This document shows positions 45,038 through 45,597 of a stretch of 64,000 nt of DNA, one piece after another (positions within the stretch are counted from its first letter, which is position 1; every line of letters begins with the position of its first letter). A program made the translations under genes and the position numbers. Source of the stretch: Escherichia coli (GTDB lineage: Bacteria > Pseudomonadota > Gammaproteobacteria > Enterobacterales > Enterobacteriaceae); NCBI RefSeq assembly GCF_965641715.1, contig NZ_OZ282454.1. One strand, written 5' to 3'. The notes below the pieces were generated by a model. That model did no database searches, was not told where the DNA came from, and worked only from the letters and a program-made list of their open reading frames with translations.

Positions 45038-45313
45038 CTACCTGTTTTCTCGTGTGTGCCACAGGCGCAATACATAAATAATCTGGCCATTAAGTTCGTA
45101 ACGGATTTCGTACTCGCCAGCAAAAATCCGTCTGACCTCCCTAGGTTCGAACTGAAACAACTGTTCTCCCATACGTGGATGAGTTAACAGAATGACCGGT
45201 GCCTGTGTCAGGGACTGCACCGTTCTGGCGGCCGCAGGTTTACTGGTCAGCACCAGAAAATCATATAACCGCGCCAAATCAGAAAGCGCCTTACTGGTCC
45301 ACTTCAGTTCCAT
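45038..45313 (-). CDS. ParE/RelE-family type II toxin (91 aa)
   Basis: Size, genetic context (start overlaps the upstream small gene by 1 nt) and conserved pattern (...GEYEIRYELNGQIIYVLRLWHTRE). Confidence 0.65.
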   Translation of the reverse strand: MELKWTSKALSDLARLYDFLVLTSKPAAARTVQSLTQAPVILLTHPRMGEQLFQFEPREVRRIFAGEYEIRYELNGQIIYVLRLWHTRENR

Positions 45314-45597
45314 CAGCGTGGCACCGGTAACGGATTGTCAGTACTGAGGCTGTCCGCCCAGGCCTGTACAGCCTGATGGTCGATAACCTGTCCGGATGTC
45401 ACATCGTCCAGGGCTGCCAGCGTCAGGCAATTACGCTCCTCCTCCTGGGCAAGCCATAAAGAAAGCGCCTGTTTGATAACCCAGCCCCGGGAGCGTTCCA
45501 GCCTGGCGGCCATCTGGTCGACTTTATCAGCCATAGGTAATGGCACATGCGCGGTAATGACTTTGGTTGCCTGTGCGGTATTGTGTTTCATTTGCAT
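45313..45597 (-). CDS. ParD/RHH-type antitoxin (start uncertain)
   Basis: Small acidic protein immediately upstream of, and overlapping, the toxin gene; RHH-like segment (LERSRGWVIKQALSLWL). Confidence 0.55.
   Translation of the reverse strand: MQMKHNTAQATKVITAHVPLPMADKVDQMAARLERSRGWVIKQALSLWLAQEEERNCLTLAALDDVTSGQVIDHQAVQAWADSLSTDNPLPVPR

Follow-up and report, generated by a model that had tools for sequence, protein, structure and literature searches.

Does the small overlapping gene pair located beside the replicon of an Escherichia coli IncFII plasmid form a toxin–antitoxin (TA) system, and does it provide this plasmid with a further addiction module? We studied this question in a stretch of 64,000 nucleotides from contig NZ_OZ282454.1 (RefSeq assembly GCF_965641715.1), the whole of which is referred to below as the window. 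The pair is almost certainly a bicistronic type II TA operon composed of genes for a ribbon-helix-helix (RHH) antitoxin and a ParE-type toxin. It is not new, being an already annotated and very common plasmid TA operon, with the products named "CopG family ribbon-helix-helix protein" and "RelE/ParE family toxin" by the Prokaryotic Genome Annotation Pipeline (PGAP). We consider the annotation of these two small genes of the window settled: with ccdAB and the present pair, the plasmid has two type II modules. The pair is among the commonest TA loci on IncF and IncI plasmids of E. coli, Shigella and Salmonella, and is without a name of its own.

The gene pair

The initial annotation described a small overlapping pair encoding a 91-aa toxin and an RHH-type antitoxin. 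Both open reading frames (ORFs) were found on the minus strand at exactly the coordinates it gave:

45313..45597, minus strand: antitoxin gene, 94-aa ORF as listed, N-terminal RHH domain and C-terminal tail predicted to bind the toxin
45038..45313, minus strand: toxin gene, 91-aa ORF, RelE/ParE superfamily, ParE-like fold

Base 45313 is common to both ORFs, the stop codon TGA of the antitoxin gene and the start codon ATG of the toxin gene together forming TGATG. This is the usual layout for translational coupling, and the toxin gene is predicted to be coupled to the antitoxin gene through this overlap. The antitoxin probably starts at its third codon, ATG at 45591, which gives a protein of 92 aa, because the triplet GGA is found 7 nt upstream of this ATG and only 1 nt before the first one, and because the alignment with distant homologs begins at the corresponding Met. 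The computed isoelectric points are 5.8 for the antitoxin (acidic) and 9.6 for the toxin (basic).

The assignment of the pair to the ParE/RelE type, also proposed initially, agrees with the profile search for both partners. The toxin matched the Pfam family ParE_toxin (PF05016) with 60.4 bits (E-value 2.6e-16; residues 3–90 on profile positions 1–88 of 89), and the antitoxin matched RHH_1 with 41.1 bits (E-value 1.5e-10; residues ~14–51), the Pfam gathering thresholds used as cut-offs being 23 and 20.5 bits, respectively. The only other Pfam match of the antitoxin, to the RHH domain of PutA, was below the threshold. In NCBIfam, the toxin had no family matches at E ≤ 1 and the antitoxin had only sub-threshold matches to other families. 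Homologs of the antitoxin carry PF01402 together with the RelB3_C domain (PF27535).

The toxin belongs on the ParE side of the superfamily

Family PF05016 holds RelE and ParE toxins alike and does not separate them (PMC11980606); therefore the Pfam match alone cannot decide between the two. Solved structures were searched with the single toxin sequence, for which the best match was 6xrw_A followed by 7etr_C (both from ParE-type complexes), and with a profile of 30 relatives, which retrieved 7etr_C (8.1e-5), 6xrw_A and 5ceg_B, all of the ParE type. No structures of RelE, YoeB, HigB or YafQ were matched by the profile at E ≤ 10. Nor was there an alignment to E. coli RelE at E ≤ 10 onto which the RelE catalytic residues might be placed.

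The AlphaFold2 model of the toxin (mean pLDDT 80.8) has the topology β1-α1-α2-β2-β3-β4, with a long N-terminal helical hairpin and without a C-terminal helix. In the Foldseek comparison of this model with the PDB, ranks 1–21 were all taken by ParE-type structures with TM-scores of 0.69–0.81, and the first RelE appeared at rank 22, RelE and YoeB matches scoring lower (0.50–0.67). Among the 21 top matches are ParE1 of Pseudomonas aeruginosa, ParE3 of Mesorhizobium, ParE1 of Mycobacterium tuberculosis, ParE2 of E. coli O157, PfiT, ParE2 of Vibrio cholerae, PrpT (rank 19) and ParE1 of Caulobacter. Since both the profile matches and the top 21 fold matches are exclusively of the ParE type, the available sequence and model evidence points to the ParE side of the RelE/ParE superfamily. 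Moreover, toxin residue H86 is invariant across 30 homologs and aligns with His91 of ParESO, which is essential for the toxicity of that protein (PMC8706911).

The antitoxin and its putative toxin-binding tail

Among solved structures, the best match of the single antitoxin sequence was 7etr_A (CopASO). The profile of 37 antitoxin relatives retrieved the same chain nearly over its full length (E-value 2.8e-13; positions 5–85 of 90), and next 6xrw_B, the RHH antitoxin of P. aeruginosa ParDE1 (E-value 1.8e-9). Antitoxin W80 is invariant and aligns with W77 of CopASO. More generally, the CopASO patch that packs against the toxin helices (V69/V74/W77/W81; PMC8706911) has aligned counterparts in I72, V77, W80 and L84 of the present antitoxin.

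Promoter and putative operator

A promoter scan and a repeat search of the region upstream of the antitoxin gene gave the following features:

45601..45643, minus strand: promoter and operator region
45643–45638, minus strand: promoter-like −35 box CTGAAA (promoter scan)
45619–45614, minus strand: promoter-like −10 box TATGAT (promoter scan), separated from the −35 box by an 18-nt spacer
45636–45622, minus strand: palindrome TAATCActaTGATTA overlapping the promoter (repeat search)
45617–45612, minus strand: half-site TGATTA, one helical turn from the palindrome
45606–45601, minus strand: half-site TAATCG (repeat search)
45661..45676, minus strand: terminator-like hairpin ATGTGCTGACGCGCAT with a tail rich in T, located at the upstream border of the cassette described below

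The palindrome resembles an RHH operator and is a putative site of the antitoxin. Of 12 loci from different genera, 11 have its 13-bp core AATCACTATGATT, with 0–1 mismatch, ahead of the antitoxin gene, although the flanks have diverged; in the window the core occurs exactly once. The terminator-like hairpin is located inside the block conserved with pO157, O104:H4 pAA and IncI plasmids, and may shield the TA promoter from transcription that reads through from the origin.

Conservation of the pair outside E. coli

At E ≤ 1e-5, the toxin has 3,673 homologs. Those with 75–80% identity are all exactly 91 aa long and come from Photorhabdus, Aeromonas, Shewanella, Pectobacterium, Achromobacter, Pandoraea and Azoarcus (Gamma- and Betaproteobacteria). 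Both genes are under strong purifying selection. For the toxin, the ratio of nonsynonymous to synonymous substitution rates (dN/dS) is 0.04–0.23 between plasmid alleles; relative to the Aeromonas and Achromobacter homologs dS is saturated and dN is ~0.14. For the antitoxin, dN/dS equals 0.04–0.08 relative to distant homologs (dS saturated or close to it) and 0.75 relative to the IncI allele, the latter value being based on small counts.

In all eight distant loci fetched, the gene for an RHH_1 (+RelB3_C) protein is followed by the toxin gene with the one-base overlap TGATG, and this overlap is kept in all 12 loci compared. A serine resolvase or a Tn3-type transposase gene adjoins the pair in five of the eight distant loci. 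The resolvase-adjacent homologs were found in Aeromonas, Photorhabdus, Pandoraea, Shewanella and a metagenome bin, a Tn3-family transposase often being present as well; the gene after the Aeromonas homologs encodes a carbonic anhydrase. Location of TA pairs by the res sites of Tn3-family transposons is a known habit (PMC7157771), and the gene order at these loci suggests that the pair travels as cargo of a Tn3-family transposon, beside the res site.

A replicon-proximal slot with interchangeable cassettes

The pair had been placed just beyond the RepFIIA origin, and the positions of repA1 and CopA RNA put it there, downstream of the replicon. The features of this region, along with the second TA module, are as follows:

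46685..47554, minus strand: IncFII repA1, ~1.1 kb upstream of the pair
47627–47717: CopA RNA of the replicon
47847..48101, minus strand: copB, replicon gene
45838..46207: conserved backbone block downstream of oriR, common to IncFII and IncI1/B/O replicons
45688..45837: junction segment of 150 bp, linking the cassette to the conserved backbone on the replicon side
45002..45687: cassette core (promoter, antitoxin and toxin), with boundaries from pairwise blastn
36781–37306, plus strand: ccdAB, the other type II module in the window

The backbone block of ~370 bp is 88–93% identical to five of the compared loci (L002, L003, L004, L006 and L007) and ends at a slot occupied by either the present pair or yacAB. 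It holds a GC-rich hairpin (45895–45909) and a 46-aa ORF annotated as hypothetical. In IncFII plasmids, a primase G-site is located a few hundred bp downstream of oriR. The published forward primer for ParDE-I, a system cloned from an IncI1 plasmid, matches positions 45881–45900. The window and an IncFII plasmid bearing yacAB are collinear from repA to position 45793, where the homology ends, 23 bp before yacA of that plasmid.

Both alternatives are found behind both replicon types. The yacAB genes follow the replicon in ColIb-P9 (IncI1) and in an IncFII plasmid; the present pair does so in pRb23_1 (IncI1/B/O) and, behind IncFII replicons, in pO157, in pAA and in the window. In R100, tir-pemIK is located downstream of repA, with tir between oriR and pemI, which bears out the comparison with pemIK made in the initial annotation. 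What follows the replicon is therefore a slot that takes interchangeable TA cassettes. The slot is useful as a marker for typing and may play a part in competition between plasmids.

The cassette core is 95–97% identical to its counterparts in pO157, O104:H4 pAA and an IncI1/B/O plasmid. Its upstream end falls at 45685–45687 in all three, and its downstream end varies, being at 45002 in pAA, 44734 in pO157 and 44330 in the IncI plasmid. The 150-bp junction segment is absent from these three copies, and only four plasmid records cover at least 80% of it, a match to a Shigella pINV being uninformative; its replicon-side 45 bp (45793–45837) continue the backbone as in yacAB-bearing plasmids. The cassette is mobile, and the slot is recombination-prone.

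Downstream of the toxin gene, at a distance of ~100 bp, there is a 93-aa ORF (44650–44931, minus strand; listed as 44650..44985, 111 aa, with a TTG start). It has no Pfam, PHROG or PADLOC match. This ORF accompanies the pair in the IncI plasmid and the toxin remnant in IncFII pKPC plasmids, and is partly present in pO157; it is missing after the pair in pAA and in the distant homologs, and is probably outside the module. Beyond the cassette and this ORF, the interval 41243–44400 is filled by an IS481-family transposase gene (41243–42328, minus strand) and fragmented ORFs resembling helix-turn-helix and transposase proteins. The IS-rich junction of the cassette may mark a point of backbone rearrangement.

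Prevalence and alleles

Intact copies were counted as matches covering at least 80% of the 560-bp coding region. In PLSDB, 2,783 records matched this region and 1,452 contained intact copies, including pO157 and O104:H4 pAA. Out of 5,426 complete E. coli genomes, 1,700 had a match and 1,142 (21%) an intact copy; 1,948 of the 1,963 matching places in these genomes are on plasmids.

About half of the plasmid matches are partial. A recurrent class of these covers query bases 1–240 (45038–45277) with 92% identity: it retains the 3' 80 codons of the toxin gene, lacks the antitoxin gene, is unannotated and is located beside parM/stbB. Such remnants are carried by resistance plasmids of the IncFII type in Klebsiella and E. 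coli, for instance in Klebsiella pKPC2_020037 (locus L005, 4001–4241), and look like what is left when a resistance region or IS26 replaces the replicon-proximal part.

Relative to the common pO157/IncI allele, that of the window carries the antitoxin substitutions N5H, A47L, R57C and E61A and the toxin substitutions A23T and T78I. Decay of this allele was considered but finds no support, given that L47, C57 and A61 of the antitoxin occupy positions variable in the family and that exactly the same proteins are found on 350–393 contigs, although A61 aligns with Glu54 of CopASO.

The system described as "RelE/ParE 1" of the O104:H4 plasmid pAA1070/pTY2 (PMC11950199), as well as the pO157 locus, is orthologous to the pair, with 96% DNA identity. 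The pAA ortholog differs at 4 of 91 toxin and 6 of 94 antitoxin residues, and has the same position by the FII origin and the same promoter and operator. The primers RWntu088/089 used for "relE/parE 1" approximately match the flanks of the present toxin gene, with small differences. Unlike the window, pAA contains a second, decayed ParD/ParE pair after the first (locus L006, 4387–5025), in which a ParD-like antitoxin ORF (MARTMTVALGDELWEYIESLIESGDYRTQSEV...) is followed by a 53-aa C-terminal ParE-like fragment; presumably, this is the "relE/parE 2" of the same paper.

Does the pair act as an addiction module?

The proposed mechanism is as follows. The antitoxin would dimerise through its N-terminal RHH domain, bind the palindrome and the neighbouring half-sites over the promoter and thus repress its own operon. 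By homology to 7etr, its C-terminal tail, with the hydrophobic residues aligned above, would wrap around toxin helices α1–α2 and neutralise the toxin. Upon plasmid loss, the labile antitoxin would decay, and the freed ParE-fold toxin would arrest growth, most likely by acting on DNA gyrase, as most ParE toxins do. The outcome would be plasmid retention or an edge in plasmid competition. We favour this full addiction mechanism, including toxicity and gyrase targeting, with moderate confidence; it draws support from the fact that YacAB, a validated stability module, holds the same slot in other IncF and IncI1 plasmids (PMC6614396).

A number of observations weigh against it. The only direct test found for the present subfamily is that of the pAA1070 ortholog: placed on pBAD33 and assayed in LB, it caused no significant loss of viability in either DH5α or the cured native host, production of the protein being unchecked (PMC11950199). 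In M9 medium, viability fell less than 10-fold with one of the two RelE/ParE constructs, the paper being silent on which of them, and its authors concluded that, besides CcdAB, no TA system of pAA1070 appears functional (PMC11950199). Plasmids often carry truncated toxin alleles, or toxin remnants that lack the antitoxin gene. The window antitoxin has Ala at position 61, where most of its relatives have Glu; this position aligns with Glu54 of CopASO, which contacts the essential His of the toxin and is required for full neutralisation (PMC8706911). Most ParE toxins inhibit gyrase, some do not, and the target of ParESO is not established (PMC8706911). The literature yielded no gyrase, SOS or plasmid-stability data for the present subfamily, and searching it by RefSeq protein accessions gave no match. 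Finally, a fused antitoxin–linker–toxin model had a pLDDT of 60, and below 50 in the toxin sheet, which is too poor for any interface to be read from it.

The negative result for pAA1070 is real but not decisive, and it argues against strong toxicity. The pBAD33 construct removes the translational coupling and, as we infer, depends for translation on the weak ribosome-binding region native to the gene. The initial view of the pair as a second addiction module besides ccdAB thus stands as far as a second type II module is concerned; its addiction part is a prediction.

The alternative that survives best is that the pair is a TA system by descent but effectively non-toxic in E. coli, and is kept by hitch-hiking near the replicon or for a regulatory role of the RHH protein. 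It fits the pAA1070 assays in two hosts and their authors' conclusion, as well as the frequency of truncated toxins and antitoxin-less remnants. However, the toxin is conserved too strongly for a dispensable gene (91 aa throughout, 75–80% identity between E. coli plasmids and genera as distant as Achromobacter, dS saturated and dN ~0.14), the residue matching the His essential for ParESO toxicity is invariant, and expression was unverified in the negative experiment. Nor can hitch-hiking account for the conservation of the pair in other genera, on chromosomes and within Tn3-type transposons. We consider this explanation unlikely, although it keeps some weight. A related suggestion, which we regard as rather doubtful, is that the pair is not a conventional post-segregational killer in E. 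coli and acts only on a trigger or target absent from standard assays. Phage attack, plasmid competition or action together with the adjacent resolvase/res or replication functions might serve as such triggers. If true, the locus, widespread on plasmids and present in ~21% of complete E. coli genomes, would have a real activity that has so far gone unrecognised.

It is quite unlikely that the toxin is a RelE-like ribosome-dependent mRNA endonuclease and does not poison gyrase, the TA logic being otherwise unchanged. The mixed composition of PF05016, the name of the RelB3_C domain in antitoxin relatives and the wording of the PGAP annotation, which goes no further than the RelE/ParE family, are compatible with this reading; the restriction of profile matches to ParE-type structures, the difference in TM-scores and the architecture of the model (helical hairpin, no C-terminal helix) all argue against it.

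An improbable alternative is that the main selected role of the pair is not vertical stabilisation but defence or competition, such as abortive infection against phages or exclusion of rival plasmids that carry another cassette in the slot. Unrelated cassettes do share one slot on IncF and IncI1 backbones, the pair is often linked to resolvase genes or Tn3-type transposons, and both proteins match PHROG families of unknown function. On the other hand, no PADLOC model was matched, on which ground the assignment to anti-phage defence was rejected, and the window offers no defence-island context; moreover, such a role is compatible with the addiction mechanism, the biochemistry being the same. 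Origins of IncFII plasmids are not known to be iteron-driven, which counts against the last possibility, control of copy number by binding of the antitoxin to the origin. This we dismiss as highly improbable: PrpA of pMBL6842 provides a precedent (PMC7848731), PrpT is a ParE homolog that appears among the fold matches, and such control would explain the position directly beside oriR, but the operator palindrome is single in the window at up to three mismatches, with no second copy in oriR, repA or copA, the antitoxin is of the RHH_1 type and PrpA belongs to the PF03693 family, and the same pair is found in chromosomes and transposons with no origin beside it.

Other features of the window

Two direct copies of a three-ORF set resembling IS66 (512, 115 and 133 aa) are located at 2400–4733 and 21248–23581, ~18.8 kb apart. 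They bracket an ORF of 2,455 aa (11693–19060) with at least three tandem 873-bp repeats, as seen from the motif and ORF spacing at 12996, 13869 and 14742. This could be a composite-transposon-like arrangement. The Rfam scan of the whole window detected the Hfq-binding small RNA isrN (33271–33413, plus strand, 156 bits) and the IS1222 frameshift element (24947–25064, minus strand), and no Sok-like or other type I antitoxin RNA above the threshold.

Comparison with known TA systems

PemIK (Kis/Kid) of R100/R1 is an analogue by position: there, too, a type II TA operon follows IncFII repA1/oriR. Its proteins are unrelated to the pair; PemK is annotated by PGAP as an endoribonuclease. The latter is of the MazF type. 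Identity of the pair with PemIK/MazEF was rejected, since the Pfam scan gave only ParE_toxin, RHH_1 and the sub-threshold PutA match.

YacAB, also known as ParDE-I, from IncI1 and IncF plasmids, is experimentally toxic and plasmid-stabilising (PMC6614396). It shares with the pair the slot, the antitoxin-first operon, the 1-nt overlap and a PF05016 toxin of ~90 aa. At the sequence level the systems differ: YacB is 25% identical to the present toxin, and the similarity of YacA to the antitoxin is not significant (E = 6.1). Neither the published pINV yacAB primers nor the ParDE-I promoter have a match in the window, and given also the protein comparison, identity of the pair with YacAB/ParDE-I was rejected. 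Only the upstream backbone, including the site of the ParDE-F primer, is common to the window and the YacAB plasmids. The pair is likewise distinct from Salmonella RelBE4 (SLP2_0003/4), whose antitoxin, with a reported mass of 10,176 Da, agrees with YacA (10,180) and not with the present antitoxin (10,429). Judging from this mass match alone, RelBE4 of Salmonella pCol1B9 appears to be the same system as YacAB; the IncI1 plasmid of the RelBE4 parent strain is also in the ParDE-I list.

The complexes of P. aeruginosa ParDE1 (6xrw), 5ceg, 8c24, 3kxe and 7r5a are the top fold matches of the toxin, with TM-scores of 0.69–0.78, and the antitoxin of 6xrw is also a CopG-type RHH protein. Sequence identity to 6xrw and the other ParDE complexes is only 20–28%.

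According to the profiles, the closest characterised relative of both partners is ParESO–CopASO from prophage CP4So of Shewanella oneidensis (PDB 7etr; PMC8706911). The similarity is remote (pairwise E-values of 0.004–0.013), Arg18 of ParESO corresponds to Tyr17 of the present toxin, and the repeats GTANTAC of the ParESO–CopASO operator are replaced here by the putative TAATCA/TGATTA. The host element is a prophage in the former case and a plasmid in the latter. ParESO is clearly toxic and causes filamentation (PMC8706911), whereas the present subfamily is known from sequence and one negative toxicity test. At the same time, the two systems have in common an RHH antitoxin with a Trp-centred hydrophobic patch in its C-terminal tail, which is disordered in CopASO, a ParE-fold toxin with the C-terminal His that is essential in ParESO, and inverted repeats in their own promoters.

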